Origin: Paraspadella gotoi
Lineage: Eukaryota; Animalia; Chaetognatha
Assembly (NCBI GenBank): GCA_051294375.1
Contig: CM119265.1
Span: 14,004,124-14,068,123, forward strand
Reading direction: 5' to 3'
Length of the DNA: 64,000 nucleotides
The translations under genes and the position numbers were made by a program. Under the pieces are notes generated by a model. It did no database searches and was not told where the DNA came from. It saw only the letters and a list, made by a program, of their open reading frames with translations. Below are positions 219 to 62,669 of this stretch, one piece after another. Each line of letters opens with the position of its first letter. Position 1 is the stretch's first letter.

Positions 219-3200
219 TTAAAAATCCAGATTGATCTCATAAAAGTTTCCACCATTCGCTTCTGTCACTATATCAGCACTATCATGAGTAAAATAAATG
301 ACGGGCACTTGGCCATCCAAACAGTAATACCGAATTTCATCGTTCAAATCTTCCTCCCTCATAACCTCCGGTTGAGATCGATCAAAAAACACAATAAGAG
401 GAACCAAGCCTAACATCCACGAGTTGATCAATGTTTGCTCGATGTCCACCTCAATTTCGGATGTAACCATGATCACGCCCCTTTCTATCGGAGACGTTAG
501 GAAAGTCGTCACCTGATCCTCACGCTGAACCCTGTCGGATTCCTCATGGGGAAAGACGAAGGTGAACCGAGAGTCGGGATTTGTTTGAGACGATCGCTCC
601 GCTTGGTAAAAACTATCTTCTTCGCCGGCATTAGATGCCTGAAAAGCCTCGCGCAACCGTATCACAGACTCCCTGTTTCGCGAGATAACGAGCACACGAT
701 GAAAGTTGAGCCGGTATATTAAGCGTCGCAGGCAGTTCGCTCTTTTCCCCCAGCTGGGTAGCGGCACAGTAAAGTTATGAAAAAGCCGCAAAGTTTTCCA
801 TGGCAAAGGATCGACGCTATAGGGCATTGGCGGAAGAAACGACACTTGTGGTCGAAACATGGTCAAAGCAATGAATTTCGCGACGTCGTCGTCCAGGTCG
901 AGACTGTCAGTGTCGGAGTTGTCAAGAGCCACCAATTGAGCATCGTGGTTGATCTCAGAGACGAACCGCAAAATCGTGGCGAGATTATTTTCAGCAGAAC
1001 CACCATTATTTTCGTCAGAGTAGTTTTCAGCGCAGAGACAACGGATTTCATCCAAAAGAAGGATTCTTATGGATGTAAGGAATCTCGACTCCAAGAAAGG
1101 TATTTCACTAGGCAAGGCAATTATGACCTGCGGCGACGCTTCCTTGTTACTTTTTGTTACGTGGGAGGCTGTGGAAGACGCTGAACGAAACTCCGAAGAA
1201 GTTGTAGAGACGGACATCGTGACGAACGTAGAGTTTGAAGACTCGGTTGCTAAGGAGGTCGCCGAAACATCGGCGGGAAGACGAGAGAAGTTCGTAGTCT
1301 TGGCCGGAGAGGCACCACCGGATGAGGCGGTTGAAGAGGAGCAAGATTCGGAGTTAGACTGGTAGAGAACGGGAGAAGAAACGACTTCGGAAGCAAAGGT
1401 GATCGATATGGGGCAAGATAACGCGTCAAGAACGCCACGATACTGCCTGGCGCGATCTTGGTTGGCTACTAAGACGACACCCTGCAGAGAAGGAAGGGAA
1501 CTTTCGATTGCATGAAGAAATGGTAACATCGGCAGAAAGGACGGAATTTCCGCGTCACTGCAGCAACCGATACCGACTAAATCTTCGCCTGCTAAAAAAT
1601 TAGTCAGGAAGCGTTTCTCGAAGGACGTGAAACCGGCGGGCCGTCTCCAGTGATAAGCAAAAGCGTCGCTCCAGTCAGCTTCAATCCCCAAGTCTTTCAG
1701 ATCCTGGTAGATCTGCTCGCTCTCCTCGCTTCTCATCACGAGCGGACGTGAGGAAGACTTTAACCTCTCTGCGAAGGAGTTGATTTTATCCTCAAACACC
1801 TTATCTAAGCAGTTTTGAGCGAGAATAGGCATAGTTGCCAACCAATGAGTTGCTAGTGACTTGTCAAAAACCTTCAGTTCAACCCAACTGTTAATGAATG
1901 CGGAAACATCTTTCACAATCCGAGAAGGATTCGAAGTATGTAGCTTAAACGTTTCCAAGATGGCGTCCATTGCAGCCTTTTGCGATTGAGTGGAAACGTT
2001 GTCGATGACGTCGGAGCTAAAATTTCCATTAAATTTTTCCTCGGGACACATAAGAAGTTCCCTGTAAATGGCAAACCAGGATGAAGAGAAAGAGTCTCTG
2101 ATAATGCATTTCCGCTGAAGCTCTTTTGGGTTGAAATCAATGTCTTTTGACTTGGATGCTAAAGAGACAATGGCTTTGGTTAAAAGCCGAATGGCAAGGA
2201 GTCGTGATTCGGAGCAACTTGCAGTCAACCCGGCCTCCTCACCAAATCCCTCGCCCAGCACCAGGTTTAATGATGGGATAAGCCATTCACTAAGTTTTTC
2301 GAAATCCTCGTTTTCTTTGTCCTTTACCAGCATCAACTTCACAAACAGGACTTGAAGAAATTTTTTGCGACAAGACTTTTGAACTTCCCATGAGTCCATA
2401 TTGTCGCAGCGGAAAATTGTCAGGTCGCTTGGAGGAGTTACCGTTAAAGAGTCTGCCAGGGCGCACGCTTCCTCGGCGCCAATAAACGCCGTCGTTATAT
2501 CCCTAAGACATGCCTGGCTGTAGGCCATTTTAGCCTTGGACAACGCCATCGGTCGATCAAAGTCAACGAATGGTTGTTGCAACTCGTCCAGAATTCCTGC
2601 GTAAATCTTCTGTTCCCGTAAATACAACTTAATGGCAACATTCTGGTCCTCTATTCTCTTGGGACCAGAGCTTTTTCTCGCGACAAGGTAATCCGCCAAG
2701 CGCCCCACGCAGCACGCCGTCAATGGATGGAACTCGCCTAAAACTTTCTCTGACTCTGAAACAACAGTTTCCAGTCGATTCAGTGCGTCGTCACCTGCCT
2801 CGGAGGTCCGAATGGTTGCAAGCCGTAAATTGGCCTCACGCCACAAAAAGAAAACCGAAGGATCTCGAGCGAGTTCTGACGAAGGCGCGGCGACTCGGAG
2901 CAATGTTTCAGACGCAACAAGAAGCTCCTGGTCGTCGATAGTGGTGTCTCCACTCAATTCTCGGTGGTCCAACAATCGCAAACAGTAAAGGATATGCACG
3001 GAGATCTCAAGGTCCGACGCTGACTCCTCGTAAAGCCGACGCGCCTCTTCAAAATGTTGCTGCGAGTGCGAGTGTCGCTTCGAATGCCACTCGTGCGAAG
3101 CCAGGTGAAGCAGGAGAGAGAGACGGACGTCGGCGGCGAGGTGATCATGGCGGCCCTGAACAGAGGATTTTTCGTTCGAGACGAAGGCGAGAAGATCCCG

Positions 3201-3567
3201 GATGAAACAAGCGTAGACGGGTTTAGGGACGAATGTCTGAAGCACGTGTAGTGTGCCAAGGAGCGGACGCGGAGATAAGCAAACTTGAACGAATTCTGAG
3301 AAAATAATCAAGAGTTTGAAAAAACTCGTACGTTCAATCGATATTAATTATAAACATACCATCGACATGGAGCGTACTAACGCTTTCGTCCAACGTTGGA
3401 ATGACGGTCAAGTTTTCGTTGATTACTTGGCGATTGTCAAATAGCAGAGATAGACCGTCAGAGCAACGGTCTGTTTCGAAATACAGTTTGACAATTCGTT
3501 GAAAAAGTAGTTTCAATACTTCTGTGTGACCTAGTTTGATATTGTCCGATTTAGGACTGTCAAACAT
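219..3567 (-). CDS. Uncharacterised ~1094-aa protein: helical/TPR-like N-terminal half fused to a degenerate DEAD-box (eIF4A-like) helicase; exons 3567-3360, 3295-219
   Basis: The 77-aa ORF joins the 1030-aa ORF in frame through a GT-AG intron (3359-3296). The C-terminal half aligns by eye with eIF4A (FLAGEDLVG, LQGVVLV, IRILLLDEI, RVLVISRNRESV, GVIMVTS). SEKVLGEFHPLTA resembles kinesin-light-chain-type TPRs. Confidence 0.7.
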
Positions 3568-3990
3568 TATTTGAGTTCACAGGTTAACTAGTACCTAAAA
3601 CCCATGGAAAGACTGTCATGTCGTATAGTAAAATATTTGGCTTAAATAAATAAGATAATAGATCTTCGCGCGATCAAGGCCACGCGTTGTTTTTGCAACA
3701 GCCAAAAAATTACCTTTTTTGTAACTTTTATCAAAAATAGGCACAGTGGAATAGAAATTTATGACAAAAAACCTACAAATTAACAGAAGTTTTTTTTTTC
3801 AGGACAAAAAAGTTACAACGATATTTATTAAGCGATTTATTCATATTTTACTCCATTGAAGGCGAAAATCTAGACTAGAGTAGATAAGAAAGATAGCACA
3901 CTGGTAAATAAGAAAAAAATAACCAAAAGAAAAAGGTGAAAAGAAAAGGTATATTAACATGTACAGGAGGGTAGTCCAGTGGAAAACCCA

Positions 3991-4789
3991 TTAACTTCTG
4001 AGTGCATCCAATCTTGCCGCCATTGCTCCTACGTCCTCCTCCTCATCCGGATCGGCCGTGGCGGGAAGGGATAACGCGGGAAGCGTGTCGCCCACAGCGT
4101 CGGGAGCTTCTCCCAACTGACCTGAATTCGACGAAGGTTTAGAAAAACCCGCTCATATTGCAAAAACAATTCTTCAACCTAATTTTAACCTTTGGTCAAT
4201 TCCCACAAAACTTTTTCGACCTCCGAATCAGCGGCTTCTTCGAGCTCTTCATCATCAAGGCCTTCCATGGTATCTTCAAGCATTTCTTCGATGATTCCGG
4301 CTTTCATCATCTTGCGAAAATATGAAAATTTAAGCGAATAAAGAATTAATGGATGATCAACGGATAAATGTAGAAATCAGGGCTGCGCACCTCCTTTGAC
4401 ATTTCCTGCATCGTTGCTTGTATTTCTGGAATTTTAATGAGTCTTTGCATGGACTGCATGACGGCGGTGCTCTTCTCCAATGCGCCGGTCACCTTGACAA
4501 CGGACAACTGGTTCTGCATCTGCATCTGAATGGAATTAATGTGCGCCTTGGAAGCGTACATCTTCTTCACGGCTTTTCGAGAATTGATGACTTCCTTGGC
4601 CAGCACTTTGCAAACGTCCTTGTCACCCTTTTTCGCTGCCTGACGAAGGGACAGAGCGACTTTGGCTTCTTCCCGTTGGATTTGGCGGACTTGCCGCTCG
4701 ATGTGATTCTGTTCTTTGCGAAGTTTGGAATTCCACTCGCGAACTTGTTCTTTTGGATCTCGGCCTGACGATTTGCCAAACAATCCCAT
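3991..4789 (-). CDS. CHMP3: ESCRT-III subunit CHMP3/VPS24, ~216 aa; exons 4789-4391, 4310-4190, 4121-3991
   Basis: MGLFGKS...KMYASKAHINS...KIPEIQATMQEMSKE|MMKAGIIEEM; two GT-AG introns keep the frame. Confidence 0.95.
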
Positions 4790-5631: not shown

Positions 5632-6053
5632 TTAATTGTTTTTCAATTGGCTACGGTAATTGTAAATTCTACCCAACTGGTAAAGTCCGGTCGCCGCTAC
5701 GAAAATGTTGACGGAAAACAAATTCCAATTTTTGGGGATGATGACCATGGAATATCGGGACCAGATAATTCCGGTAGCGGCGAGCGCTCCGCTGTCGAAA
5801 AAGTCAAATTAAGCGAGCGTCATCATAAAGTCAAATCTGGTAAGAAATGGGTAAACAACCTTTGTGTGAGACTAAGTTTGTCCGCAGGTCTAGCGATGTC
5901 AGCTACCCCGGCAATCACCAAGCACCATTTCATCATTGGCGCCCAGAAAAAGACTGTTTTTGGGCCAGCAGGATGCTCCCAGACTCCCCTCAATTGCATC
6001 GGGACGAATTTGTCCACGGCTCCCACGACGCCTCGATAGAGAGACGACGCCAT
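5632..6053 (-). CDS. MPC2: Mitochondrial pyruvate carrier 2, ~117 aa; exons 6053-5860, 5791-5632
   Basis: HPAGPKTVFFWAP.MKW.LV.AG and, after a 68-nt intron, ALAATGIIWSRYSMVIIPKNWNLFSVN. Confidence 0.95.
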
Positions 6054-6143: not shown

Positions 6144-6410
6144 TCATTTTAAAGATGATTTATTTTTATGTTTTTCCCATTGTTCTTTTGTCCAAGTTTT
6201 CATGGTTAGTGCATGGATGCCACCCATTTCTTGTTCCAGCGTCGAATATACGAGGCGATGCCTGTCTTTTAAAGGGACTCCATCGAACTTGTCAGAGACG
6301 ACGATGACGTTCCACTTTGCGCCGCAACCATCAGACAAATCATCCAATTCAAGATGTAGAGGATCGAAAGAAGCCGTCAACTTGGCCTTTAAAGAATCGT
6401 ACAACTCCAT
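6144..6410 (-). CDS. BOLA2: BolA-like protein 2, 88 aa, single exon
   Basis: DLSDGCGAK...VSDKFDG.PL..RHRLVY..L...IHAL.MKT BolA signature; the GCG motif fits the BOLA2 type. Confidence 0.9.
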   Translation of the reverse strand: MELYDSLKAKLTASFDPLHLELDDLSDGCGAKWNVIVVSDKFDGVPLKDRHRLVYSTLEQEMGGIHALTMKTWTKEQWEKHKNKSSLK

Positions 6411-6642: not shown

Positions 6643-7681
6643 TCATTCAATCGGTTTTACACTAGTTACTTTTAAATTCTTTTTTTCTCGCTCGATTTGA
6701 TTGGCCATTGCCTCCACGTCTTTGGCATAAGTTACTTTCCACAGGTTTTCACCTCCCTCCACCAAAAAAGGGCGAGCCCCACCGTATTTTCGCGCCACTT
6801 CCAGACATTCAGTTCCTAAGTCAAGATCTTCGACAGAACAGGCCTCATAGGCGTTGAGTATCATGGGAAAATAAAAGGCCTAAAATAAAAAATAGCACAT
6901 TTATACAAATGCAATAAACCTAATTTTTTATATTCAATGTTTAGTTTCAATTAATCAAGACCGCCACCTAGCACCTGCGGCATCTCCGAAGCGCAATGAT
7001 CCGCACGGACGAGAGTTTCGGCCAGGAAACCTTCTTTGTCGGGACGCACTACGGTGGAGACGAGGGGTCGAACTGTTCCTGCTGCGCCATAACATCCAGC
7101 GGCATTTACTACCCGTTCCAAAGTTGAATTATCAAGAAATGGGCGGACGGCGTCGTGAATAACAACGATGTCGTTGTATAAGCTTTGAAAGGTCGAAGTT
7201 GATGCTAAAGAGGCACTGCTGGGAGCGTCCGATTCCTCCGCACTTAACGATTCATTATCGATAGATTTTCGTAACGCAGCAATTCCATTACGAATGGAGC
7301 GATGGCGCGTCTCTGCACCGTCGACGAGAATAACTTTTCGATAAACGTACGAGTCAGAGTCAGAGTCAAAACTGTCATCAATTTTGGCATCGATGAATTC
7401 CCGAACTTCGACTCGATAAGATGGAGGAATCACGAGGGCAACGCTGAACGAGGGTTCAGTATATATAAATTTGGTAAATTTCAATTCTCAGTACTCAGAA
7501 AAAAAAATCCCAACCGTTGGATCCAAGAGTGTCGGACAAATGTTTCCAGAGCGTAAGAATAAATTGGCCGTCCATCCACTTCGATAAACTGTTTGGGTTT
7601 AGGGTTTTCTAGCCTAGAACCGCTTCCACCGGCCGGGAGCACGGCGGTGACTCTGAGGCAAGACGATCCAGCTGCAGGCAT
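6643..7681 (-). CDS. CRPPA: CDP-ribitol pyrophosphorylase (ISPD/CRPPA-like cytidylyltransferase), ~290 aa; exons 7681-7515, 7443-6975, 6879-6643
   Basis: AVLPAGGSGSR...PKQF, TRHRSIRNG, IHDAVRPF, GAAGTVRPLVSTV, ASEMPQAF, DLGTECL, NLWKVTY match the animal ISPD family; introns keep the frame. Confidence 0.9.
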
Positions 7682-7831
7682 TGTAAGTTCTATTTAGTAG
7701 TCAACAAGTTTCAGATCATCTTCACTGCGGAGTGTAACTCGAATACAAACCAGAGAAAGCTGAAAAAAATTTTAACAAATAGTGAAAAACAAATATAAAA
7801 AATCCATAACAAAAGAAAAGTAAGCATTTAA

Positions 7832-8753
7832 TTAAAACTTCGTGAGCAATTCACGACACTTTTCCTCCAGGTTGATATAAAATTTCATTTTTTCCAAAAT
7901 CTGTTTTGCATTGTCAATGTTACCACCGGAAAAGGCTCGGTTCAATTCCTTTTCCATGACGGCCACGATCTCGCCGAGTTCCTGGCACATTCGCTCCGTG
8001 TCTTCCGCACTGCTTAAACCCTCCACATTCTCATTAAGTTCCATCATTTCGAGAAGAAAACCTTGGCCCAAATCAGAGCGAGTACCTTCGCTGATGGGAG
8101 CGCCGCGCAGTTGCAGTAGGTAGGCCCCGCGTTTGTATGGATTCGTTAACTGGGCGGCGGCTTCGTTAATGACAGCGCTCTGGTCGGCGGCTCTCTTCAA
8201 TTCATCCGGGGACGAGAGCGCGAATTTATCCGGATGTAATTTTCTAAGAAGATGGCGCTTGTGAAGGGTTAAGGCTTTAACGTCTACATCGTAACTGTGA
8301 AGAATTTGTTGAGAGACAGATTAAACATCCATTTTTCACTTAACATCATATTGAAAATTACGTCGCGGGAGAGTTGACGACATCAAAGTAACTCCTGGAT
8401 CTGTCAGCCGGGAGAACCGAGTCACATTTCGGGCAAAAGAAGACATAACTCGAGGAAGAAGATTCCGCATTGCAATAAGCGCAGCGAACTGGCGCCAGGT
8501 ATGCGGCGGAAGTTGAAGCTCGGCAAAAAGGGGCAGAGGAAACACTCAATGAAGGAGACCGTGCGACGATTACGCCGCAAACACGGGAGTCTCTGTTAGA
8601 TTCGGTCATCCAAATTTCAGAAAAGACTAGTTGACATTGCGAAAAGTTTCTGGTAACTACGTTAGAGAAGTTCAAAAGCCCCCAGCTCGAGGCCCTAGAA
8701 TGGGGTGTGAGCAGGACCAATGAGAGCGGCCGAATCATGGCTGCAAATCTCAT
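7832..8753 (-). CDS. HSCB: Mitochondrial Fe-S co-chaperone HSCB/HSC20, ~284 aa; exons 8753-8362, 8294-7832
   Basis: CxxC...CxxC (CAYC, CPKC), J-domain LHPDKF, INEA..LTNPYKRGAYLL, FLLEMMELNE; N-terminus resembles a presequence. Confidence 0.93.
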
Positions 8754-8999: not shown

Positions 9000-11897
9000 T
9001 TAGTTCGATGTTTTGAAAAATTGTTCAAGAAACGCATTGTTCTTTGCTTTGACGTTTGCCCGCATCTCTTTTAACTTCGTAGTGACCTCCTCTTGGCTCA
9101 TCGTATCGAGGGGCAAAAGCTTCCATTCCTTCAAAATTTTCTCGATGATTTCCTCGCCCACCTTTTGATCTAATGCTATCTTTTTAGCGACGTGATCATT
9201 GTCGCTCATGGACGCCGCGCTCACCCCCTGAAAATCTTCTAACTCAGACGCCTTCCGTTTAGCGTCTTCAACAACATGATCTGGAAAATGGGCCAATCGT
9301 GCAACGTGGATGCCGAAACTCTGTTAAGAGGGTAGAAAAGCGTGAAATAAAAAAATATTAACAATAGTTGTCATGTAAAGAGACACTGCAAAAACTTTTT
9401 TTAGATTTTAAATTAAGTTACTAACTTGATCGCAAACTCCGGGTTTCACTGTGTACAACAAGGTAAAAGCGTCTTCGCCCTCGTTATCCTCGGCCTTTAC
9501 CAGTGCTGTCACGTGAAGATTGTTCACGCGTTTTTGTTCGTTCGCCAAAGCTGTCAACTCATGAAAATGGGTTGCGAAGAGGCAGAAACTGTTCAGCTTG
9601 TCCACAATGTGCTCAGATATAGACCAGGCCAAGCCGAACCCGTCGTAAGTCGACGTACCGCGTCCTAATTCATCTATAATGATCAGCGAGTCGGCAGTAG
9701 CGGAGGCCAAAATGGATGCAGACTCAAGCATCTCCGCCATGAAGGTAGAGACGCCTTTGAGTTGCGAGTCTCCGGCACCTACTCGAGTGAGGACGGCGTC
9801 GACAATCGACACCTCCACGTTCTCAGCGCAAGGGACGAAGCACCCCATCTGAGCCATGATGACCAGCATACCGACGGAACGAATATAAGTTGACTTCCCG
9901 CCCATATTGGGACCTGTAATGATGGAGAAAGACGCACCTTCGGCCTTGTCAAAGTCTACATCGTTAGCGATGAAAGCCACGTCGTCTTGAACCTCCAAGC
10001 ATGGATGACGGGCCTGCGGCAGACGAAGCCGTCCACTTCCTCGAGAGAGTATTTTTGGTCGAACATAAGGAACCGGGGCGTTGCTCGTTACTGTGGCGAA
10101 ACTAAGCAACACGTCCAGTTGAGCGACGAGGTCGTTCAGTTGTTGCATCGGTTGAGTGTATCCCGCGGCTAATTCGATTAATTGCGTCTTGATGCCTTCT
10201 TCCTCCTCAGCATAATCTTTTCGATAAGCAAGGTACTGTTCGTTCAGCTCAGCCATACGAGGGTTATTGAACTTGACTCCTGATTTGTTCGTTTCAACCG
10301 AAGTGTAGTTTCGGTTATTTCTTAGTTTTTTTTCTTCTTTTTGGGTTACTCTCAAAAAGTATCCCAACTGTGGGGTAGATTCTAACTTGATTGACTTTCC
10401 AGCCTCTAAATTTAAGTCCCTTGCAGCCTTGTCGAGCTGTTTCGAAATTTGGGACTCCAGGTCGTCCATTTTGTCTCGCAAGTTTTGAAGAGAGTCGGCA
10501 AAAGAGGGTGCGATATAAAGTTCGTGAGGTTTAGAATCGTCTATAGTGGATTCAACCATTTCAACGTATTTCTCAAATTGCGCCGACAACTGGCGCAACG
10601 GCGAGACAAAAACCTCATTAAAAAGAACGATGTGCTTTTCCGGACAGGATCCAAGAGCGTCAATAAAAGCCGGCAGACGTTTAACGGTAAGAAACACAGC
10701 GTAAATATCTTGAAGTGTGCCTTTACCGCGCAGAAGCTTTTTTGAAAGTCTTTGGAGGTCGGGGAAACGTTTGAGATGACCCTCCTGCACAGTCTGCCGC
10801 AGCATGCCGTCAACGAAGGCTTCCACGACATTCAATCTCTCCTCGATCTTATTGAGATCCATAAGAGGCTGTTTGATCCATTGGCCGAGCAATCGCTGTC
10901 CAGGACTCGTGCAGCATTTGTTTAGAAGCCCAAAAAGATTCGTGTTTTTGCAATTGCTCTCGCCAGGGCCAGGAAGCAGATTTAGGGCTTTGATAGCGGA
11001 CGCGCCGATTCGCATATAGTTCTTCAGGTCGAAGCTTTCAATGGAATAGGTATTAAAATGGTTTTCCGACGATACAATTTCGAGGTACTTTAAAAGCGCG
11101 GCAAGGCAACTCATAGCGTGAGTCAGTTCCCATTCTGGTAGAGTGGTCACATTAAGATCACGTCCCTTTTTCTTTTTGAGAATTCTTGTTAAATCTTGAT
11201 TCAGATCTTTTACATTAAACTCCGCTCTCTTTTTCTCCGAAATTAATAAATTCATTCTTTGAAGAACCTGTTTGAAGTTTTCCGAATCGGCTACATCTCC
11301 TCCAGAGGGGAGTATAGCCTCTTTGGGCGAAAGTTGCACTAACAATGTCTCAAGATTGGCAAACATCTCTGAGTCATTGAACTCAGAAACTTTGATGCAT
11401 CTGTGAGTGGTGTCGCAGAAAGCAACTCCAACGACCCTTCGTCCATCTTCATTGGCCACTTTAATGGCAACTGCTCCGGCTCCCGCTGTATCTGTCATCT
11501 CGTGATTAGCATACAGCACATCTTCAAACTGCGTCAAGTTTCCCGGGGAGCCGCGAAATTGAAGCTCCCACTCCTCCTTGGACTTACCGCTCTTGCAGCC
11601 ATAAACTTCAACACGATACTGTTTGACGATGAGTAGATCACGTATCAGATATTGAAAATTTTTGGGACTTAAAGCAACGGAAGGCGTATTTCTGGGGCCC
11701 AACTTCTTGATGACGCCCGCACTCTTGAAAATCTCCTTGGCAGCAAAGAAAGCGTCTTCGTCGTAGGCGGTAAAGTACTCCCCGCGATCAAAGACGCGAA
11801 AAGTCGTCGGACTCTTTTCAGGAAGTTTCTTTAAAAAATCGAAGAGGCCTCTTTGATCCGAAGCTTCGAGTTGAATGTTGGATTCTAACGACGCCAT
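9000..11897 (-). CDS. MSH2: DNA mismatch repair protein MSH2, ~930 aa; exons 11897-9426, 9320-9000
   Basis: TGPNMGGKSTYIR, VGAGDSQLKGVSTFMAEMLE, IIDELGRGTSTYDGFGLAW, CDQ|SFGIHVA. Confidence 0.98.
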
Positions 11898-11980: not shown

Positions 11981-14900
11981 CTAAAAAGTAAATTGCAAAA
12001 TTTCAATGCCAGCACCTACAACAATAAGATATCTTCTCTTCTTTATAGTCTCCATCGCAGTGGAAGCGATGTCAGGAACGTTTGAAAAGGCACTAATGCA
12101 AAACTCAACTTCATCAAGATTAGACTCATTCCTTACTAAGGACCAAACATTGATCCGTTGATCGATTCCCGCAGATAAGACATTATCAAGCGACTCAGAA
12201 CAAGACTGCACTGAGGTAACTTGAGAGGCGTGAGCTTTGGGAATTACTTTCTGACTCCACAGGCCATAATTTAAATCTTTGTTAAGTCTAGAGATGCAAA
12301 CGGAATTATCGTCTCCACCCGATATGATCAAAATAGAAGATAATTGTCGACCCAATGAAATTACGTCAATAGTGGAAAATCCCGATTGATGACAGTGAAA
12401 ACTTTGGATTAAATCGAGAGTTAAAATGGATTTCTTTGAGCCAGATGAATGATTTTCGCCACGTTCGACTTGGCTCTCTCGTGGGGCAAGCCTCCACACC
12501 CGAAGAAATCCGTCCGTTGATGAAGAAAACAAACAATTATCGCTATTTCCAAACCTAACAGTCAAAAAGCATTTTTGACATGAACTTATCGGATTTTTAG
12601 CCATCAAAGAAAGGCGTTTTTTAGAAATTTCGATTTCGAATACTTTTATAAGGCCATCGGAACACGCCGTAGCCAAAAGCAGTCCATCTTCACCAGTTGG
12701 TTTGAGGTCTAGAGACATGTACCTAATATCCATAGTCTGTGCTTCTTTATGACGTTTTTTGTGCGAGGTTCGTTCCTCGGCAAGGAGAGAAGCGAAAACA
12801 TTGAAGTCAGGTCCACTCTCATTGATGTCCAGCAACCAAACGCAGATCTGCCCACGACCTCCGCTAGAAACGAGGACAATATCGCGGGGTCTTTTGAAAA
12901 ACGTCATGTCTCGTACGCTGGATATGTGTCGCTTCAAGGTGCGAACAATTCTATGACTTGCTTTTTTAGAAGTCACATCGATTGAAACAGACCACAGAGA
13001 AACCGTGGTGTCTTCGCTTCCAGTCGCAACAAGCATACGATCCATCGAGGCTTCTTCGCTCATAAAACTTACCGAATGCAAAATGGCGACTGAGGTTATC
13101 TCCTTTCTGTGAAGAGCCTCGATCAAAACTTTGCCTCCATGATCATCATCGAACTCAGTTCTCTCGTAAAGCACGGCGTCCCCTTTCAACACTCCTACGA
13201 AGCGAGAACACTTCTCTCGTTTTACATAATCCCAAGACCTGTGGCCGCCGCCGCATTTAATCGTCCACCGACGTCTCCGCTCCTCCGGGTCCCACTCTAC
13301 AAACGTGTCGCCATGAAAACCGAGAACTACGTTGCGGCCGTCGCCGAAGCTTAGTCTCTCCAGCCAATCAAATCCTTTGCCGACTCTTTCACCGTTGGCA
13401 CAATCCAGAAGCCAGGAGTCCGCAGTCTGAATAATCCTCACGCTTCGACGAAACCCATCACGCCCAATCGTGTGGATGAGCGACGGTTCTTTGAGAGAAA
13501 CTGCAAGGCATGTCGTTCCCGCCTTGGAATGAACACGGTAAAGTGTGCTGATAGGATCACGTAAGTCGCTCCCAAAGAGATGAACGCTACCGTTCCGATC
13601 GCCACAGACGAGATGCATATGACGCCCGGGGGTGAGAAGCAGCAGACCGGTGGTGACCCAGCGCTGTTTAGAAGTTGGCAACGTGAACGTCGCTATAGTT
13701 TCGCAACATTTCATTTCGAAGTCAACGGTCAACAAGTAAAGCATACCGTCTTGGTAGGAAATCAGAACGTGACATTCGTCGGGTTCCTCGACTTCTTGGT
13801 CGTTGTCGTCCGGGTCGTCTCCGTTTTTGAGGGAAGACTCCATCTCGGAAGTTTTAAATTTCACCAAATTGAGAAAATGAATGGAATGAATTTTTTTGTT
13901 CGCCAGTTGAATCTCGAAATTCTCCGCGACGTCGCTATAGTCGGTGATTTGAAGAAACTTGAGGACTCCGTGAATATTTCCGATTGCGAATTGCCTCCTT
14001 CCATCAGTTGAGTCTCGTCGCCGACGCGCGGCCATAACCGAATAGGAAGCGAAGCGGACGTCGCTGAAGATTAAAACGGGAGACGGGTCGTCGAGATGGA
14101 AGGCGTAGACTTTTCCGCTCCCAGTCATCACGATAACTTCTTCCAGACAAGTAAACGCCACTGATTTAGCCGAATCTCCAAATTCTGAGTCACGAAACAA
14201 CACAATTTTTTCCGTATCTGATGAGGACTGCGGTGATTTGTTATCGTCGCAGCGGTCCGGCATGGTATTCTTTAACATTTCTACTTCGTAAACCGTGACG
14301 CCACCGTTGTTTCCACCAGAGAAGATGGAGCTACGACCTCGAGCGACGTTATGAGAAGCTTCAACGCATAACAGACTGGGTCCTCCTTCAACCTGAAACT
14401 TTTTCTCAATTCGATTCGTCGCCAAGTCCCATAAGAGAAGAGCAGCGTCTTCGCCGATGGACACCAACTTAGAACCAGCATTGAAAAAGGTGACGTCCCA
14501 AACTCGTGCCGAGTGACCGTAAAGTGTCGAAATTAGGACTGGGGTAACTTCTGACAGCGACGAAGACGTTAACGCCAAATCTGTTTTTTCGCCCTTTCGT
14601 CTAAATTTCCAAAGTCGAACGCTGCGATCGTCGGAAGCTGAAGCTAAAGTTTGAATTTCAGCCTCATATTGAAGAGCGAAGATTACTCCGTCGTGGCCTA
14701 AGGCAAACGAAAAGAAAAAAAAATATTTTTTTACCTGCCGAGACAGTAGGCAGTTACCACTTACAAATTAACATAATTTTTCTGTTTTTATTTGTTTATA
14801 CATTTAGGCAAAACAAATAGATAATTGTGGCGGTATATTCACACCGCCTCACGTCCACCATCGTTCAGCCAAATCCATTGGCTCAGAGGGGGAACACACC

Positions 14901-15803: not shown

Positions 15804-16254
15804 GGTCAAATCCCTTTTAAGCAGGCAATATCCCCAACATATCAATGCTGGACAAAAAAAGATGTTTAAAAAGGCACGGTTGGATCGCTGGAACATATCG
15901 GAAATAAGTAAAAAAGAGAAAAAAAGCAACCGATGCTTTTTGTGACATCGGTTTGTACAAGAACGTGAAATGAGTATGACAGGACCAAAGAAATCCAGGC
16001 AAAAATAGAAGTTTGCCTAATTTTTCTTAAAACTTAATAATCTATTGGAAGTATAAGTAGACAAATTATTTTGCTAATTGACATCATAGAAATGTTTAAG
16101 AGATACATTAGCTGACCTAACCCATGACCGGCTGGCCCAAAAATAACTTTTTCCCCTTAAAGTGGTAAAAGTTAACGATTTTAAAAGTGACTTCGGTAAA
16201 ATATGACTTTCGCCGACTACTTAAAATTAATAATTTTTAAAAAAAAATTTTACC

Positions 16255-16750
16255 TAATTACCCTAACCCTAAACCCCCTTAAAACTAATCACTAATGCGG
16301 AAAAAGGTACGTAAAAACTAAGAGTTCTGTGGGATAACGAAATTTTAAAAAAATTAAGATTTCCAAATTTTTGTTTTATCGGTTAAAATTAGCAAAAACT
16401 ATAAAAAATATGATATGATGATTTTTAATGGTTTATCCCTTATTTAACCCACTTATTATCGAAATATTAAAAAACATACTTTATGTAAATAATTTTTTAT
16501 ATGCTATTTAAAAAAAAAGTTTTTAAAAAAATTATTTTTATTACCTACGCATTGATAAATATTTAAATGCTTAAATATTATACTGTGCTTCACTAGTTAA
16601 AAAAGTGATAATAAATATTGATTAAGTATATGATGGACAAATAAATTTTATATTACAAAACTCCTAATGATAAAGAGTGATCAATTTTGGCCCGCCTTAC
16701 TAATTACCCCTAATCCTAAACCACCCTTAACCCTAAACCCCTCGTAACCC
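16255..16750 (+). repeat. Two short degenerate telomere-like CCCTAA tracts, probably part of a non-autonomous element
   Basis: taattaccctaaccctaaacccc (~16255-16280) and taattacccctaatcctaaaccacccttaaccctaaacccc (~16701-16741). Confidence 0.5.
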
Positions 16751-47600: not shown

Positions 47601-48575
47601 TGGTGGATGAAAATACACCATCCGTTCAGACTCAGACAATTTCACTAATTTATTTCTCAATGAGTAATTTTTTGATAAAAAATAGAATTTACCATGAAAA
47701 CAAAAACTTCATGGCTTTAAAAAAAGTGCGTACTGTTTAATTATATATTTTTCGGTTTTAGCGATCTCAAATTTTTTTTTAGAATATTTATTTGCATTTA
47801 CGGCGGGTTCCAACTATTTTTTTAAAAAACTATTATTATATATCCCAATAATGACTTTAAAAAAACTATCCGATTTGGCTATATGCAAATTTTTCCGATT
47901 TTAGCTTACGAATCGATCATAGTGAAGTGTATGGAACATGTCATTTTAATTGCAAACTGGAAATAATATTTATTATTTTTATTAAAAAATTTGTCTTTGT
48001 TGTTAATTAATTAATTAATTAATTTTTACAAACAATCCGTATTCCGTAAGTGGATATACTATTATGGTGGACTAAAATCCACCAACCGTTCATCAGTGGC
48101 CATTGGTGCCGGAGACAAGTCATTCGCCTCCCAACCCAAAGGTCCGGGGTTCTAGCCCGGTGGCCGCCTAGCAGTTAAGAGGGACGGGGCGCTTAACCCG
48201 CCTGTAACTTGGTGTTACAGCCTGATCCGAAGCTCAGGGACTGCTTATATTGAACGGTTCTGTCACTAACACATAACAATAATTACTGTCTCTTCACTAT
48301 GTTGTACAAGCTGTACAAACACTAGCGAAAAGAGAACCAATTCACTTACCAGGGGGAACATTGGTGACGACGAAAGATCCGTCTTCCTTAAGGAAACCAA
48401 TATATTTTCCTCCGTCTACTAATATTCTAGTGGAGGTAACCCAATCCAAGTCGGGGGAATGAGGTATCGAGACCTTGCCTTCCAAGGTGAAAGAGCTCGT
48501 TGAAGAATCTTCCTCTGCACCCGAAATGGTCACAAAGAAAGCTAGCGTTGCAATCCATATCATAGGCCGCTTCAT
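44631..48575 (-). CDS. EMC7: ER membrane protein complex subunit 7, ~237 aa; exons 48575-48350, 47214-47045, 46058-45959, 44848-44631
   Basis: Signal peptide; [21 protein letters not shown]; [18 protein letters not shown]; QREEWRITD...NPMVMMM.LP; [11 protein letters not shown]. Confidence 0.95.
45690..45910 (+). mobile_element. tRNA-derived SINE-like insertion in an EMC7 intron
   Basis: Pol III A-box-like TGGCGCAGTG and B-box-like GGTTCTAGCCC followed by a GC-richer body within an AT-rich intron. Confidence 0.55.
46215..46662. repeat. 26-bp minisatellite GATTGATTGATGCAAAGATAGCAAAT, ~17 copies
   Basis: Near-perfect head-to-tail copies without spacers. Confidence 0.95.
48095..48280 (+). mobile_element. 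tRNA-derived SINE-like insertion in EMC7 intron 1
   Basis: tRNA-like head (TGGTGCCGGAG...CCTCCCAACCCAAAGGTCCGGGGTTCTAGCCCGG) followed by a hairpin-rich body and an A/C-rich tail. Confidence 0.6.
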
Positions 48576-49899: not shown

Positions 49900-51121
49900 T
49901 CACAAATCAATAATGACTTCGACGTAATTGCAAGGGAAGTAACCGCGTTGTCCCCTCAATTCCCCTTCATACCAGTTGTCGTCGAGCCTGGCTAAGAGAT
50001 CAATGATATCCCCTTCCTGAAATGCGAGCTCTCCCTCGTTTTCCACCTCGAAATCGTAAAGGGCCTTGCAACAGGCGCGACTCTGCCTCGACGGCGTAAC
50101 TGAGGCGCTGAGGCTGCTCCTAGAAGCGCCGTTGGTCGGAGCCAGTTGGCCATCCACGGCGTAATCGGAGGCGGTACCGCGGCCGTTGGCCATTCCTGTC
50201 TTGTTAGCCCCGTACAGGTCGAGCGTCGATGGCGGCTTGAGCTCATGCATGGAAGCCACGCGCTTGGGCTTGTGTTCGTCTCGTGGCTTATTCTGAGCCT
50301 GGCGCGCCTTCTCCTGCAGCAGGTCGTTTAGCCTCTCGAGGATATCGACGGTCTGCTTGTGGTAATTGAGTTGCGCCTGACCGAAGGCGGCAAGTTGTGA
50401 GACTTGCTCCGCGTCGTTCTCCAACAGATTAAACATGGACATTTCAGCTAACTCCTTGGTTTCCTCAAATTTGTCCATCGCAGCTCTGATTTCCTCGTCG
50501 GTGGCTCCTTGCTTTCTCCGTTTGCAGTCGAAGTCGAGTCGACGGCCCGACAACTTCTTGCGATGGTGCGCCACTTCCCTCAGATCCTTGTTTTCAAGAT
50601 TTGTCAGTGGATCGAGAAAGTTTTGCTTGACGTTGTCCTCGAGGGCGTATTTGACGTCGGCCATTTGATGTAGACTCTCGCCGTACTCGATGAGTGCAGA
50701 GCCGAAGATCGAATCGTCTCCCAATTCCCGCCCGCTCTTGACCATGCAGTCTCCGAGGAAGCCCTCCGGTTGTGGGCACGTTTGCTGTCGGGGGTTCTGC
50801 CCCGAACCGCGGACCTTGGAGATTGTGTTCAGGGTGAAGAGGCGCGCACGCGATGCCGGGTTGGGCTGAAGATATTCTTGAGTCCTTGCTTGCACTTCCG
50901 TCACTAAGCTATTCATTACATCAACTTTTCGCTCCATTTCCGTGAACTCCTGAGAATGAAGAAGGAAAAATTGTATATAAATAATAAAATTGTAATTGTA
51001 TTTCTCTGAGAATCAACGATCAACCAACCTCGTCGAGTTCCGTCCCCTTAACTCCTCCCATTTTTTCCGAGACATACTGGTTGGCTTTGTTTAATTGCTT
51101 TTTAAAACCAGCTAGAGACAT
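49900..51121 (-). CDS. SH3GL: Endophilin A (N-BAR + SH3), ~380 aa; exons 51121-51029, 50949-49900
   Basis: MSLAGFKKQ.NKA.QY.SEK.GG..GT.LD; EYLQPNPASRA; KKLSGRRLDFD; SH3 ALYDFE.ENEGEL.F...WYEG...GYFP.NYV. Confidence 0.95.
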
Positions 51122-55490: not shown

Positions 55491-58400
55491 TCACAATATT
55501 TCGCAGGGCCATAAGGATTGGAAGCAGTTAGCTGAAATACAATGAAAAATTGAAAATGTAATGCTAATTAATTTTGTAAGTCAAACGCAATGTTACTCAC
55601 ATCTTCTTCTGGATGAATCCGATGACGCGCTACTATTTGTCTGAAAAAAAAAAACATGTTGGTGATTTAGTATTAAACTTATTGTTATCCCACTAAACTA
55701 AAAAAATATATATGAAAAAAAAGGATAATAATCAAGAAACAAAGATTTAAAAAATCATTACAATAATATTGAAAGTCGAAAGGCAAAATTTTCATGTAGG
55801 AATAACTAAATGTGAAATAAGTGTTTTAAATTTGTTTATTATTATAAGAACCCAAAACAACAAGCTGACGAAGTACGGCAAACAAGCGATAAGGCAGCAT
55901 GATAATATGATAAAACAAAAATGGAATGTAACGCAACATATTCTTTCTTTGTTTACTTTACTCTTTGCATTAATTTAAAATTTATGGTACAGTCATGTGC
56001 AGTCGCGCCACTTTATTTCAGAATTTAAAAATAATTATATATATATATACTTTAATATAATTTAAAAAAAATTAAAGTTTATTGAAAAATGATAATTTTA
56101 TTAAAATTGGGCCATCCGTTTAGGAGCAGTGATTTTTTTAAAATGAAGTACTCTACCGCAAAGCTGAATGTAAAAAAAAATCTGATTTTTACTAACCTTT
56201 TTTTTTATTTACTTTGCATTCTTTGTGGTTAATAAAAAAAAAATATACTGGACATCTAGATAGCTGGATAAGTGGATTGACTCAGATCCCTAAATAATTA
56301 AGGTATTTGAAACATATGATGAAAAACAGGTCCATGATTTTAAGCTTTTAGATAAAAGTCGATTTTCCCGTTTAATTTAATTAAAAATCATATCTCTTAA
56401 AATTGTAATATAATTTAAACGCATTGATTCTTTTTTTTAATTTATTTTTCTTATATATTTTTTAAAAATATTTTTATATAGAGTGTCTTGAATTTAAAGT
56501 TATAAAGTGGCGCGTTTCTTTTGCCCAGGAGTGTAATGCTTGATGGATAAGAATATGCTACTAATTAATTGTAAAATAAAAAGAACATATGGGAGAGAAA
56601 CAAAAATGAGATGACTTTTAAGAACCATGGCTTCAACAAAAAACAAAAAAAGTCAACATGTCCTCATCACTCATTCATCACTAGTGAATAGCTATGAAAA
56701 TTAATTGGAAAGTTAAAAATTCTCAGAAAATTATACAATTTATGAGAAAATAGCTACGTGTTTTCAATTCCATAATAGAAAAGGTCACAAGACTAGTTTC
56801 TGTGTCAAATTTAGAAAGCAAAAAAGTATTCCGTGCTGCGGCGTAAGATTCCGGTCGCAAATTTTGGAGAGTGATCGTTTCTGACAATGATGTTAATATA
56901 CTCGATTCGGGTAGTGATATGTCAAAAAATGACGATTATAAAAATCATACTTAGTTAATAATCAGTATAATAATAATGTTATTATTAATAATATTAATAA
57001 TAATGATAAAATAAATATTAATAATAATTTGAATTATGATACAATTTAAAAATTTGGACTAAAATTATCAAAAATATTAATCAAAATCGATTTTATCTTA
57101 AAAGTTCCTATAAATTCTTAGGTTCAAACATCGCTATAAAGGCGATTGTACTCTATCATTTGATCGCTCTTGTGTGTTTTTTCCGGTCAATTTTTTTTTG
57201 TTTTTATGGTTCCAAAGTATAGAGCAGACAAAGAAAAACCAAATAAAAGAAGTCGTTAAGAGAGATCTAGTGTGATTATTGATTTTTGGTTGATCTAATG
57301 GATATTGGATAATTGTTGTATTGGTTGTTTCAATTTTAGTCATATTAACTTTATAGAAATAAAGAAGTATTCAGTTCTTTCAGAGAGGAATGAGCCATTT
57401 TTATGATGAGGACATGCATACAAACAGCCCTAGAACAAAAATCGGGTTAATGATTGATGAAGGATGAGAAATGATTCCGTACTTCCGTCACCATGCTGTC
57501 AGTGCCGCCGCCGGTCAAGCAGACGAGGCATTCTTGCCCGATGTCCGGTTTGCCCGGCGGCTTTCCCTCCGTTTTTTCATGATAACATCTTAAAGCTGCT
57601 GTCGTCTCGCCGTTCGACTTTGGTTGGTCACCACTTCGCCCTGTACCGTGAGAATTTCCCGGTCGTCCGTTGGCGTCGCCCGGGTCGCCAGGGGGTCGCT
57701 TTCCGGTCCCGTTCTTCGTACCGTGACCCCCGTTCTTTTTGCCATAATCGCTGTCACCGACGTCGGGGAAGTCAAGACCCGGATGCGGCCGCGACTCTCC
57801 CGGCGCGGAAGGAATGATAGACGTAGAAGGACCCGCCGCTCCTGGGAATTTGAGACGCACAGAAAGTGAATGAAGTCATTATCCTCCTAAGAATTCAAGC
57901 TAAATTTTGGAACAAAAACTCCATTACGAATTTCACAAAGAACATTTGCTTTCTTTCTAAAAATACACCGCATTTTCTTTCTTCATAGAAATAAAATCTT
58001 TTAACATTAAACGGTATAATCGTTAAATATCAGTATAAATATATATATATTTTTTTAAAACCGCGTCAATATCTACGAATGCACCTGCGGAGAGGAGTCC
58101 TTGAGCAATGGCACTTTGATATGCGGATGACTGAAAAAAAAATTTCCATTAATTGTTAAAGATAGCAAGATAAAATTATAAAACCATTTTTAAAATCTTA
58201 CCTCCAATTCCTTGGCTTTCAACTTAGCTCTGTCGTTTTCTTCTCGGTACGTTTGAATATTCTTGAGCAGTTGTGCTCTGATGCCCATCTGGTGAACACC
58301 CATCTGTTAAAAATTTTATAAAAAAAAAAACCAACTGATAATTGGGGATTTGTCGATGAATATAAATAAGTGTTTTTACGAGACTAAATTTTAAGACCTG

Positions 58401-61302
58401 TTGTAGCTCTTCGTCGGTTAGCTGCACCATAGATTCTATGGTGATGCGATGCCTTGCAAACAAAGGGATGTAATCATCCGCGCCGGCATCTTGCAAAATA
58501 TGTAGCACGGCATATTCAACTTGATGTTCCTTCAAACAAAATTGTTTAATTAATCAAAAGAACAACAGGGGCGCTAATCGGTGGTGGTTTTCTACGAATA
58601 AAACTCGAGATTGTGGACGACGTTAATTTTTTCATTTGTTGCACAAGTAAATTTTACCCTCGTGAACTCATGACGATAATCAATCAATCAAAGTGATTAC
58701 TTGAAGTTGTGTTTTAGAAAAATGGCAGAAGAACAGTTGGTTTTTAGTTGGTTGTTAGTCACATTCATCTCCTCTTACTCTTTTATGAATTATGATACAA
58801 TTAATTATTAACTGTTATTGAGAGCTCTTCGGCAGCAATCTTCGCTTCTTCACTGGTAAAAAAAAGTGTAACTGAAAACGTTAGTAGACTACATCGTGTA
58901 CTGTACGCGCGAACATTAATATTTTTGAAATACATAGAGTCTCGATCTAAAGAAACGGCTAATACCTTGCTCAACTCAATCTCTTCGTCCAGACTCAAGT
59001 CGACAGCCGATGGCAATTGACGCCAACTCTTTTGCTCTTCAGGATTCGAATTCACAGAAATCCCATATCTCTCAGAAATTTCCTTCTCCAATTCCTTCCA
59101 TTGATGCCACTTATGCTTTTTTTTTTATTACACAACACGTAAAGGAGAAAGACAGTATGAAAAAAAAATTTTCTTTCCTATTCGCAATATTTGGAAAATG
59201 GCCGATGTTAATTTTAAATACCGTTCTCACCTTGTCTATCAAGGCCTGGGGCTTCTTATCCATCAGCCGTTGATATTGCACCAGCCAGTAAAACGCTTCT
59301 GTGTCTTCTCTCTGCTCTTCCATCTCGTACTGAAAAAGTCAACGATCGAAATTTAAGCCGACCGCACGACGCAGTGGAAATAATATGTTCAAAAGACATT
59401 CAGTTGTGACACTAACCATAAAAAATGACCAATTTTTTGGGGGTTATATTTTTAGTTCTGATTGATTGCAAATTTGATTATTCGCTATATTTTTATTCAG
59501 AATAGTTGAATTAATATGTTTTATAATGATAGTATCATTAGAAAACATCTTAATTCAATTAGTAATGATACTAGTGATACAATTGATTCCCGTCTCAGCG
59601 TCTCACCAGTCGTTTCTTCAACTCTTCTTCCCTCGCCGCCTTCTCGTCCACCAACTGGTGCATCACTCGCATGAGCATGTCCCTGTGTTCCGCCAGGATG
59701 ACCTTGTCCTGCTCAGCCTTGACCAGTTTCCTGTCCAATTCGAGAGCAGTGAGCCGCTTCAGCTCCTGCTCGATCAGAGTGATCTCGGTGCGAAGCCGCT
59801 CGTGCTTCACGTCTTTCTCCAACACCAGCTGCTCGTAGGCCTCTCGCTGGAATTCAACCTGTCGAATGGAGATTAATGTTTACTAAACAGTTTAGGTAGT
59901 ACTTTCATTTGCAGTTAAGTACTTATCTGTCATTTCATTGATTTGTTTATTACCTTTGTGTTATTGTCTTTTTAGTGTCATTTTATCAATAGTTAAAAAG
60001 AGCATAATGTTTGGGTGGTTTTTTTCTTTTTTCTCTCACTATATTTTATTGTCATTTCAATTACTTGGAGGTCTACATCCCTTCTCTTCCTACCTCTTCC
60101 ATGAATTCCTTGAGCATCTCGTCTCTCGAGCGCCACTTTTGTTGAAGTATATTGTCGACAGCGTCCTGGCGCTCGGTGATCTCCTTGACGGCGCGGTCGC
60201 GCACCTCCTCTTTCTTTTTTTCGTATCTCTCGAAGGCTGCCAAGAGTTGGGCCTCGCTGTACTGTTCCAACTGGTCTGACATGGATTCTGGAGTGAAATG
60301 AGAGAATTAAAAGGAAATTGCGTTTTGTTATATATTCTAAAACTAACAAACCTAGATATTATGTTTCTGAAAAAAAGTATTACGTAAGTATCTAAAACAA
60401 ACCTAAAACTTCTTTTTGTCTGAGATGCATAACTTCCTCTTGCGTGATTTGGAAGAGATTTTCCTCTTCCGCCCTGTATCTCTCCGCTGCGTCCAAAATC
60501 TCTTCGTATTCTTCCGCCCTTTTGTAAATAGAGTTAGAAACAGATTGTATTTGATTTATTATAAAATGATAGAAATTAATATTTTGAAAAAAACATTTCG
60601 AGTTTAATGCTGCAGTATGTAGAATAAAGCATAAACAGTTAAGTGACTTTTAAGTACGTTTCTTCAAATAAATATTCTCTTTTACACTTACTAATTCCCA
60701 GTTGTATATATATAAAACAGCTTAAGTCTTCATTAATTCACAAAAAAAAAAAAAAAAAACTTCACGAAGACAATGAAATTCGCGACGACGTTACCCGTCC
60801 CACCTTTCGTTAAGATCGAGAATTTGTCTGAGGAGTGCGTTGACTTCCTCGTCGGCTTCTTTGACGGAGACGAGAAGACGTCGACGATCCGCTTCGCGCT
60901 TCTGGTAGATGACGTCCAAGTCCGTCAGCAGCTTAACCTGTTCCTCCGCGACCTCGTCCAGGAGGTAAGCCTTCTTGGCCTATGTAGAAAAGGTTATTAG
61001 TAGATTGTGAAGAAGATCAAAGATTAAAAACGCCAATTAGAGGGGGCGGGTTTCAGAGTCCAAGAGAGAGGAATTTGTTTGCATTTATCAGTTTTATGGA
61101 TATAATCGTTGAAATTTTGAATTTGAAGAGCACCGAACCTTAATTTCAGCGACAAGCTGCATCTCTTGATCTAACATTTCGTGAATTTGTTTCTCGGCCA
61201 TTAGCCTCTCCTGATTTTTCATGTGCTTGTTCGTCTCGTAGTCTCTTCTCCTTTCCTGTAATAAAAAAATAAAAAGATAATCAGGAAATAAGAAAGAAAA
61301 TA

Positions 61303-61338
<36 letters not shown>

Positions 61339-61821
61339 ACTAGAAAGAAGAAGAAAGAAAAGAAAAGAAAGAAAGAAAGAAAGAAAGAAAGAAATAGAAA
61401 GAATTAAAATGAATAACGACAGAAAGAAGGAAGCCAAAATCAGTTTTACTTCACTTGGAAACATTGCACCTCGAATTTGGTTTCCGCGATGACGGTGGCG
61501 CTGAGCTTCATCTTGTTCCTGGTCGCCTCCTCGTCGACCAACTCCTCGGGGGTGAATTCCCCGATGACTGTCTTGCCCCTGGGCGCTTCGAGGAAGGCGG
61601 GCGGACCCGCGTACCCCGGGGCGAAGACCCCGCCGGGAGGAATGCCTTGCTTTCGCACTGCGTACGAGTCGAGGGAGTAACAGGAAGTGGGCGTGGTCGC
61701 GTCGGACGGCGCCTCGTAGTCCAACCCGTACTCTGTCGAAGTCGATCGAGATATTTAATGTTTCGTAGTTTTATTTCACTATATAAATACCGAATTTTTA
61801 GCTCTCTCTCTCTCTCACTTA

Positions 61822-61893
<72 letters not shown>

Positions 61894-62669
61894 ACTCACT
61901 CTCTCTCTGGAAATTCGTCATTCCTCACCTTTACACAAAAATTTCATGATGGCCGCCGTCCCTTCTTCGCAAATGATTGGATCCGGATGCCTCATAGCGT
62001 AAGTATCAACGACCAGCTTCTTCATAGTTCCGGCACATCTGGAAGCGGTAATGAAGCTAGAAAACCAAGCTCCGAATAACGAAGACGAAAAACAAAATTA
62101 ATTTCCTCACCTGGCGAATTCCGTTGGCAGTGAACGCACGTGAGAGTTTTTCGTCAGGTCAACCGCTTCCAGCAAAGTTAATTCGCAAAGAATCATGGGG
62201 AATTCTAAATGAAAAATAGAAACGGCGCAATGCGGTTTTTTGAGGTTATAATTTAGTAAAGCGGGTCAAAGTACTACCTCTGAGTTTATTGTGTCTGAGA
62301 TTAATCTGTTGCAGTTTAGTCAAGTTCCTGATGGACGCCGGAAGTTTCCTGACTTTGTTGTTGCGTAAATTGAGAGCGCGGAGATTCGGCAATAATCCAA
62401 CTTCATCGGGAACAAATGTGAACCAATTCTCGCTCAGGTCAAGTACCTTGAATAATATTTAAAAATCGTTAAAATCAAACAACCAATCAATTAATCAATA
62501 AACAATTTAATCAACGAATATATGAAATCATTTTTATCAATCAATCAATCCGTCAATTAATAAATCAATCGATCAATCAATCAATATTATCAACCTGGAT
62601 AAGAAAAAGATCCGCAATTTTTCCTCCCCCACGAATGGAAGTCAAATAATTGTTACGAAGAATCAGAGT
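55491..62669 (-). CDS. LRSAM1: LRSAM1/Tal-like protein (LRR, coiled coil, SAM, PSAP); many exons; first coding exon(s) not identified and terminal exons uncertain
   Basis: LRR exons 62669-62595, 62446-62278, 62204-62111; ICEEGTAAIMKFLCKEYGLDYEAPS; AFYWLVQYQRLMDKKPQAL; SAM YIPLFARHRITIE...LTDEELQQMGV; PSAP; ECLVCL. Confidence 0.8.
55988..56535. mobile_element. Tc1/mariner-type MITE-like element
   Basis: Imperfect terminal inverted repeats TACAGTCATGTGCAGTCGCGCCACTTTAT / ATAAAGTGGCGCGTTTCTTTTGCCCAGGAGTGTA with TA at both ends; non-coding AT-rich interior. Confidence 0.6.
61288..61402. repeat. (GAAA)n microsatellite in an LRSAM1 intron
   Basis: Direct sequence. Confidence 0.9.
61802..61908. 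repeat. (CT)n microsatellite in an LRSAM1 intron
   Basis: Direct sequence. Confidence 0.95.

Follow-up and report, generated by a model that had tools for sequence, protein, structure and literature searches.

A 64,000-nt stretch of DNA from the chaetognath Paraspadella gotoi, hereafter the window, carries 18 genes between positions 219 and 62669, all read from the same strand. We propose, with a probability of about 0.65, that these genes include two operons resolved by a spliced leader (SL): an eight-gene block running from WDR6 to a helicase-like gene, and a block of five to seven genes that starts at RAB5IF or NDUFA12 and ends at ABHD12. Each block would be transcribed by RNA polymerase II, probably from one upstream promoter, and the precursor would probably be resolved into monocistronic mRNAs through polyadenylation at every gene combined with SL trans-splicing. 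The leader, whose addition we infer together with the promoter sites, would join an AG acceptor located before the next ATG. Directly seen are the common strand, the sizes of the spacers, RNA continuity at most of the junctions placed, and one working acceptor, that of ISPD, without a regular partner donor. The conserved housekeeping genes of the locus match the content of known operons (PMC12460157, PMC8629364).

GC content is 40% over the window, whose non-coding DNA is AT-rich and whose introns are short. The original prediction stated that all supportable genes lie on the minus strand, and this was borne out by 18/18 models, all of them minus-strand open reading frames (ORFs) of unrelated genes arranged head-to-tail. 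In the order of transcription, these are LRSAM1-like, endophilin A, EMC7, NDUFA12, PRR14/Tantalus, RAB5IF-like, SMG1, aprataxin-like (APTX), a PF12044 peptidase, ABHD12-like, WDR6-like, MSH2, HSCB, ISPD-like, BOLA2-like, MPC2-like, CHMP3-like and the 1,094-aa helicase-like gene. MSH2 and endophilin A were named from homologues, while the other names combine the Pfam family with an orthology that we presume. The exon-chaining script fused genes and served for exon candidates only. Pfam matches fell exclusively in minus-strand ORFs: none of the six long plus-strand ORFs tested gave one, and no convincing family was found among 55 ORFs from the gaps, the large introns and the top of the window (the best-scoring 55 of 225, both strands), one of which had a match at E=0.008, below its cut-off. 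A plus-strand two-exon ORF at 63298 is an exception to the uniform strand and lies outside the 18-gene run. Assuming independent orientations and a single window, the chance of a uniform strand is 2^-17 = 7.6e-6.

Eight of the 17 stop-to-ATG gaps measure 250 bp or less. Seven of these are 61, 58, 83, 246, 150, 232 and 90 bp long; in the eighth, SMG1-APTX, the first ATG of APTX (22106) follows after 128 bp and a later one (22004) after 230 bp. The gaps of 58-246 bp listed in the original prediction were therefore reproduced exactly, its 128 bp for SMG1-APTX holding for the first ATG. Spacers of 58-90 bp are 13-36% GC, and an AATAAA or ATTAAA lies on or beside the stop codon of the peptidase, HSCB and BOLA2 genes. 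The description of the two blocks as tight is correct for the eight short gaps, but the blocks also include five spacers of 343 (the PRR14 start being uncertain), 732, 427, 842 and 423 bp. The remaining gaps are of kilobase size: 1,324 bp (endophilin-EMC7), 1,840 bp (EMC7-NDUFA12), 2,136 bp (ABHD12-WDR6) and ~6.3 kb (about 6,270 bp; LRSAM1-endophilin). Repeat insertions had been predicted in the 1.8-kb and 2.1-kb gaps, and we indeed found minisatellites in the former and dispersed repeats in the latter. Related ATCGCATCAAT/GCATCAATC-type minisatellites occupy the EMC7-NDUFA12 gap (42968-43809) and an EMC7 intron (46143-46663); since related arrays also fill this intron, the gap behaves as transcribed intron-type DNA.

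RNA continuity was assessed with the contigs of one public run of one study (X1), whose RNA status on record is a guess. The contigs were placed on 3001-23000, giving 11 gene junctions, with RAB5IF reached by length arithmetic, and X1 contains a fraction of 0.87 of the words sampled from 3300-13200. Among the joints listed (15 of 38), 13/15 end in CT..AC, as GT-AG introns of the minus strand do, and 12 of the 13 coincide with modelled introns. Because the joints skip GT-AG introns, X1 represents spliced RNA. Two other candidates, X2 and X3, were dropped as RNA support, their matches being short and divergent.

Six of the 11 junctions lie inside unbroken contig pieces: MPC2-CHMP3 (842 bp) and CHMP3-helicase-like in record 1 (4391-5791 and 3360-4119), WDR6-MSH2 and MSH2-HSCB in record 2 (9426-14696 and 8362-9320, the record continuing to 16600), and SMG1-APTX and APTX-peptidase in record 3 (20899-23000). 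From lengths and exon models, record 1 extends over 6150-128, record 2 over 8086-16600 and record 3 from 17795 to ~37393, RAB5IF-SMG1 falling within record 3 by length arithmetic. Length and depth arithmetic bridges two further junctions: peptidase-ABHD12, where the bin over the 58-bp spacer has a depth of 99.1 against 99.0 expected, and BOLA2-MPC2, where record 1 extends just 7 nt into BOLA2. In 6/7 bins checked, depth corresponds to one spliced contig minus introns. In bin 11672-12338, the depth of 109.9 exceeds the 105.4 of the neighbouring bins, which points to one further short X1 contig close to the WDR6-MSH2 spacer; it may be a branch due to a leader, a poly(A) tail or an allele. We infer that continuity across junctions reflects one precursor, and co-transcription of the eight-gene block and of the five-to-seven-gene block is likely.

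One joint goes further. At 7759/8086, X1 links HSCB to an acceptor that scores 9.0, truncating the HSCB frame. As this joint cannot arise from DNA, it requires an HSCB-ISPD read-through RNA, and HSCB-ISPD is the only pair for which read-through is proven. The joint also provides a working unpaired acceptor before an ATG, that of ISPD. Past the joint, the ISPD contig continues for just 30 letters, and base 8086 is also where record 2 ends, a configuration in which the assembly graph would branch at 8086 with no unspliced path over 7760. Such a graph implies that the ISPD acceptor is used efficiently despite having no regular donor, as a trans-splice site would look; it likewise makes DNA a less likely bridge, although this argument comes from assembly behaviour and is not a control. 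Contigs that would reflect the predicted read-through cross 6/11 junctions directly and two by arithmetic, a splice joins HSCB-ISPD, and two junctions lack a bridge. Of the predicted operon blocks, the spliced contigs and the cross-gene splice support co-transcription of WDR6 to the helicase-like gene, except at ISPD-BOLA2, and RAB5IF/SMG1 to ABHD12, whereas the ABHD12-WDR6 bridge that would connect them was not seen.

Several observations weigh against the two-operon interpretation. Among the 11 junctions, the X1 contigs showed no bridging at ISPD-BOLA2 and ABHD12-WDR6, records 2 and 3 both ending in repeats within the latter gap. A contig spanning two genes is not the same as a single transcript, and the RNA support comes from one run of one study. 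No leader-like tail was present among the loose ends listed (16 of 202) of the X1 contigs, and no leader-bearing side contig was kept in 6/7 depth bins; because contigs drop such side branches, the leader is neither demonstrated nor excluded. The acceptors were scored with a matrix built from 40 cis-acceptors, taking the best AG in the 110 nt that precede each ATG (17 in all). Their sum beats dinucleotide shuffles weakly (8/200 reach it) and their scores are no better than those of 84 background windows (p=0.21), with poor values at endophilin, RAB5IF, MPC2 and NDUFA12. Scores were intron-like at HSCB, ISPD, WDR6, SMG1 and BOLA2. TTTTCAG is the nematode acceptor consensus; unlike in Caenorhabditis elegans, the acceptors here do not follow it strictly. 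Comparison of two published chaetognath leader pieces with the window returned 0 and 1 matches, the single match being equalled by 21/100 shuffles, and Rfam gave 0 matches in the window. The single leader match lies at 51271-51289 (minus strand), has 3 mismatches to the 3' part of the leader and is located 150 nt before the endophilin ATG.

Could the two blocks belong to a single unit? All 15-18 genes may be transcribed as one polycistronic unit of 40-62 kb, which would exceed the published maxima and in which up to 17 genes could, as originally predicted, share one promoter. Such a unit may have grown as intron-poor housekeeping genes, probably retroposed, were captured behind a head gene rich in introns, but we consider this larger unit unlikely. 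Intron density is 0.96/kb in the 17 downstream genes (32 introns, 33.3 kb of coding sequence) and 6.6/kb in LRSAM1 (13 introns, 1.96 kb; 58085-62668), a comparison with a single gene in which the upper gene models stand without an RNA check; MSH2 has one intron, and the last exon of SMG1 is 5.5 kb long. This roughly sevenfold lower intron density downstream hints at growth by retroposition. A GC/CpG-rich island at 62.75-63.75 kb contains five motifs that we take to be promoter motifs (three CCAAT, one CACGTG and one GCCATTTT), a number matched by 7/2,000 shuffles, the motifs having been chosen after the sequence was seen. None of them occurs in the eight short spacers. The island was nevertheless dropped as a demonstrated head promoter, as the N-terminus of LRSAM1 was not found at 62250-64000. 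Because the window lacks the first ~60 LRSAM1 residues, the island may be intronic to this gene. The plus-strand ORF within it (63298-63618) contains an 84-nt intron with canonical GT-AG ends, has another donor at 63619 and lacks a Pfam match; it would be a divergent gene or, alternatively, a gene that overlaps the LRSAM1 5' portion missing from the window.

A second alternative, which we rate as rather improbable, is a series of operons, small or hybrid, with two to four genes each, with extra internal promoters in the 343-842-bp and kilobase-size gaps and contigs fused by 3' ends that run into the next unit. The five longer spacers within the blocks speak for it, contigs cannot separate overlapping units, and most known operons have two or three genes (PMC8629364, PMC4122922). 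Nevertheless, record 1 runs uninterrupted through the spacers of 842 and 423 bp, where the bins checked show no additional contig, and 17/17 spacers lack a GC/CpG island like that at the top of the window, a test of composition only that AT-rich promoters would escape. Non-coding DNA was scored in 364 windows of 200 nt (median GC 0.295), of which the most GC-rich were three intronic patches, two isolated windows (0.405) and the 62.75-63.75 kb island; the patch in WDR6 is a high-copy repeat and the other two are repeat-like by eye.

We give still less credit to the absence of any operon, each gene having a minimal promoter within the 3' end of the preceding gene and the fused contigs stemming from leaky termination or trace DNA. 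Compact animal genomes devoid of operons exist, as in Dimorphilus (PMC7854359), and the weak acceptor statistics and the unseen leader fit this explanation. But it leaves unexplained 18 same-strand genes without one divergent or convergent pair, the 58-90 bp spacers, and an ISPD acceptor that seems always used without a regular donor. Least probable are polycistrons resolved without a leader, as stable multi-gene mRNAs or by cis-splicing from upstream donors with translation re-initiation: the sole resolving event seen is a cis-splice from HSCB to the ISPD acceptor and the contigs are both spliced and multi-gene, but that splice places ISPD behind a truncated HSCB frame, poly(A) signals lie at internal gene ends, and the animal operons described in the cited papers are SL-resolved. 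The two SL-resolved blocks thus remain our preferred interpretation, and their features are collected in Table 1.

Table 1 Genes and other features of the window, in order of transcription where this applies
Feature	Position	Strand	Description and evidence
GC/CpG-rich island	62750..63750		3 CCAAT (minus), CACGTG, GCCATTTT; plus-strand two-exon ORF; candidate promoter region
LRSAM1-like (LRR, coiled coil, SAM)	57450..62668	-	at least 14 exons; Pfam LRR + SAM; exon matches to full-length relatives
Endophilin A	49900..51121	-	2 exons, 380 aa; Pfam BAR + SH3; named homologues; model
EMC7	44631..48575	-	4 exons; Pfam; open model
AT-rich 22-23-nt minisatellites	42968..43809		~0.84 kb of the 1.84-kb EMC7-NDUFA12 gap
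NDUFA12	42257..42790	-	2 exons; proposed head of block 1; Pfam, model
PRR14/Tantalus-domain gene	37522..41913	-	4 exons; start codon uncertain; Pfam Tantalus, model
RAB5IF-like (EMC6 Pfam family)	36418..36789	-	single exon; within X1 record 3 by length arithmetic only
SMG1	22235..35990	-	12 exons, 4,120 aa; Pfam SMG1, PI3/4 kinase, FATC; open model
Aprataxin-like (HIT + zinc finger)	21309..22106	-	single exon; ATG 22106 or 22004; Pfam
Putative metallopeptidase (PF12044)	20167..21247	-	2 exons; AATAAA overlaps last codons; intron and upstream spacer in RNA
ABHD12-like hydrolase	17940..20108	-	4 exons; end of block 1; 3 introns are RNA joints
ABHD12-WDR6 gap, 2.1 kb, dispersed repeats	15804..17939		record 3 ends at ~17795, record 2 at 16600
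WDR6-like WD40 gene	11981..15803	-	2 exons; proposed head of block 2; X1 record 2
MSH2	9000..11897	-	2 exons, 930 aa; both flanking spacers within unbroken record 2 pieces
HSCB	7832..8753	-	2 exons; Pfam, model; record 2
Cross-gene splice	7760..8085	-	GT donor in HSCB coding exon to AG acceptor 78 nt before ISPD ATG
ISPD/CRPPA-like	6643..7681	-	3 exons; 2 introns are RNA joints
BOLA2-like	6144..6410	-	single exon; Pfam, model
MPC2-like	5632..6053	-	2 exons; record 1
CHMP3-like (Snf7)	3991..4789	-	3 exons; both flanking spacers within unbroken record 1 pieces
Helicase-like gene, 1,094 aa	219..3567	-	2 exons; end of block 2; model; intron seen in RNA

The gene at the upstream end, whose name LRSAM1 is our assumption, has a model that is incomplete at both ends, its 5' end not being found in the window and its 3' end being approximate. 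Neither tblastn nor a 14-sequence profile (best 1.8 bits) found the conserved first ~60 residues at 62250-64000, and the gene either begins beyond the window edge or is truncated. An LRSAM1 exon query returned 0 matches by word-indexed search and 53 by HMMER search. In the exon at 59676-59861 (minus strand), two sequences, P0268 and P0269, match ~60 residues at 95-100% before the matching stops at one point, which suggests close relatives that may have an extra intron within this exon. Other genes displayed features of their own. In PRR14, 52 nt of a small exon recur at 87% identity in the preceding intron (39805-39856, 40789-40840); the first exon of SMG1 (35196-35990, minus strand) encodes 265 aa of low complexity, rich in Arg, Gly and Asp; and the WDR6 intron contains, at 14826-15080, a GC-rich high-copy repeat with a summed X1 contig depth of up to ~28,000. 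The 219..3567 gene has a weak likeness to DEAD-box helicases, its best Atlas score of 0.83 being a lead only.

Relatives were collected for two of the proteins. Among the matches listed, the three closest relatives of MSH2 are 69-76% identical, compared with 52-56% for named molluscs, hemichordates, echinoderms, vertebrates and corals; for endophilin, nine clusters reach 60-84% and named bilaterians 45-53%. No named chaetognath sequence was returned among the MSH2 or endophilin matches. Quick trees (37 rows for MSH2, 49 for endophilin), built from subsets of the matches that contain no nematode, flatworm, rotifer or tunicate rows, placed the window proteins on a long stem with their closest relatives. 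The endophilin tree displays two mirrored subclades, a pattern that retained old duplicates would give. Such duplicates fit chaetognaths, because these animals are known for gene duplicates, as well as for SL splicing and operons (PMC2481426, PMC12460157). A metagenome scan with MSH2 yielded 80 loci, mostly at 36-49% identity and, judged by identity, none from the clade of the window; one locus (L001), with 68% identity in the conserved part, carries a single gene, ends in poly(A) and shows no synteny.

How do the two blocks compare with known animal operons? According to the published descriptions, 18% of P. gotoi genes are in operons (gaps <250 bp), the longest having nine genes (PMC12460157), and an RP S14-PCNA operon exists in Spadella cephaloptera (PMC2481426). 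The locus shares with these chaetognath operons co-oriented housekeeping genes, very short spacers and a poly(A) site near the next acceptor, but its co-oriented run comprises 18 genes and the leader was not seen in the contigs available here. In the flatworm Macrostomum lignano, operons hold at most nine genes and RNA units split at repeat-filled spacers (PMC8629364). Likewise, the genes here are conserved, repeats inflate the spacers, and records 2 and 3 stop in a repeat-rich gap; unlike in Macrostomum, where the SL is known and mapped, this locus is known from its layout and RNA contigs. Macrostomum is absent from the best 120 matches listed for MSH2 or endophilin. The operons of C. elegans, with two to eight genes separated by ~100 bp (cited in PMC8629364, PMC7986045), resemble the blocks in their short T-rich spacers, in which a poly(A) signal precedes an acceptor. 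Tunicate operons (Oikopleura dioica, Ciona), which reach 11 genes (PMC4122922), are also head-to-tail, with functionally loose housekeeping genes and near-zero intercistronic DNA at some junctions, but the splice sites here are canonical; no named tunicate is among the best matches listed for MSH2 and endophilin. In the literature retrieved, which has incomplete coverage, does not include the P. gotoi operon table and also comprises PMC7986045, PMC2776167, PMC11067885 and bioRxiv 2025.03.14.643333, neither this cluster nor any animal operon with more than 11 genes is described. The gene names of the cluster had no match in three text supplements of PMC12460157, which do not include the operon spreadsheet.

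Taken together, the blocks likely work like operons of the known kind, at the upper end of known sizes. The predicted term giant would apply only if the blocks join, as blocks of seven to eight genes lie within the published maxima (8 to 11). Even so, the eight-gene and five-to-seven-gene blocks would rank among the longest animal operons on record. If the blocks do join, an RNA polymerase II transcript would pass at least 15 poly(A) sites over tens of kilobases, and the unit would be nearer to a trypanosome-like arrangement than to the known animal operons. The locus would then raise the questions of what suppresses termination within an operon, how one promoter gives rise to very different mRNA levels, and whether operons grow by retroposition.

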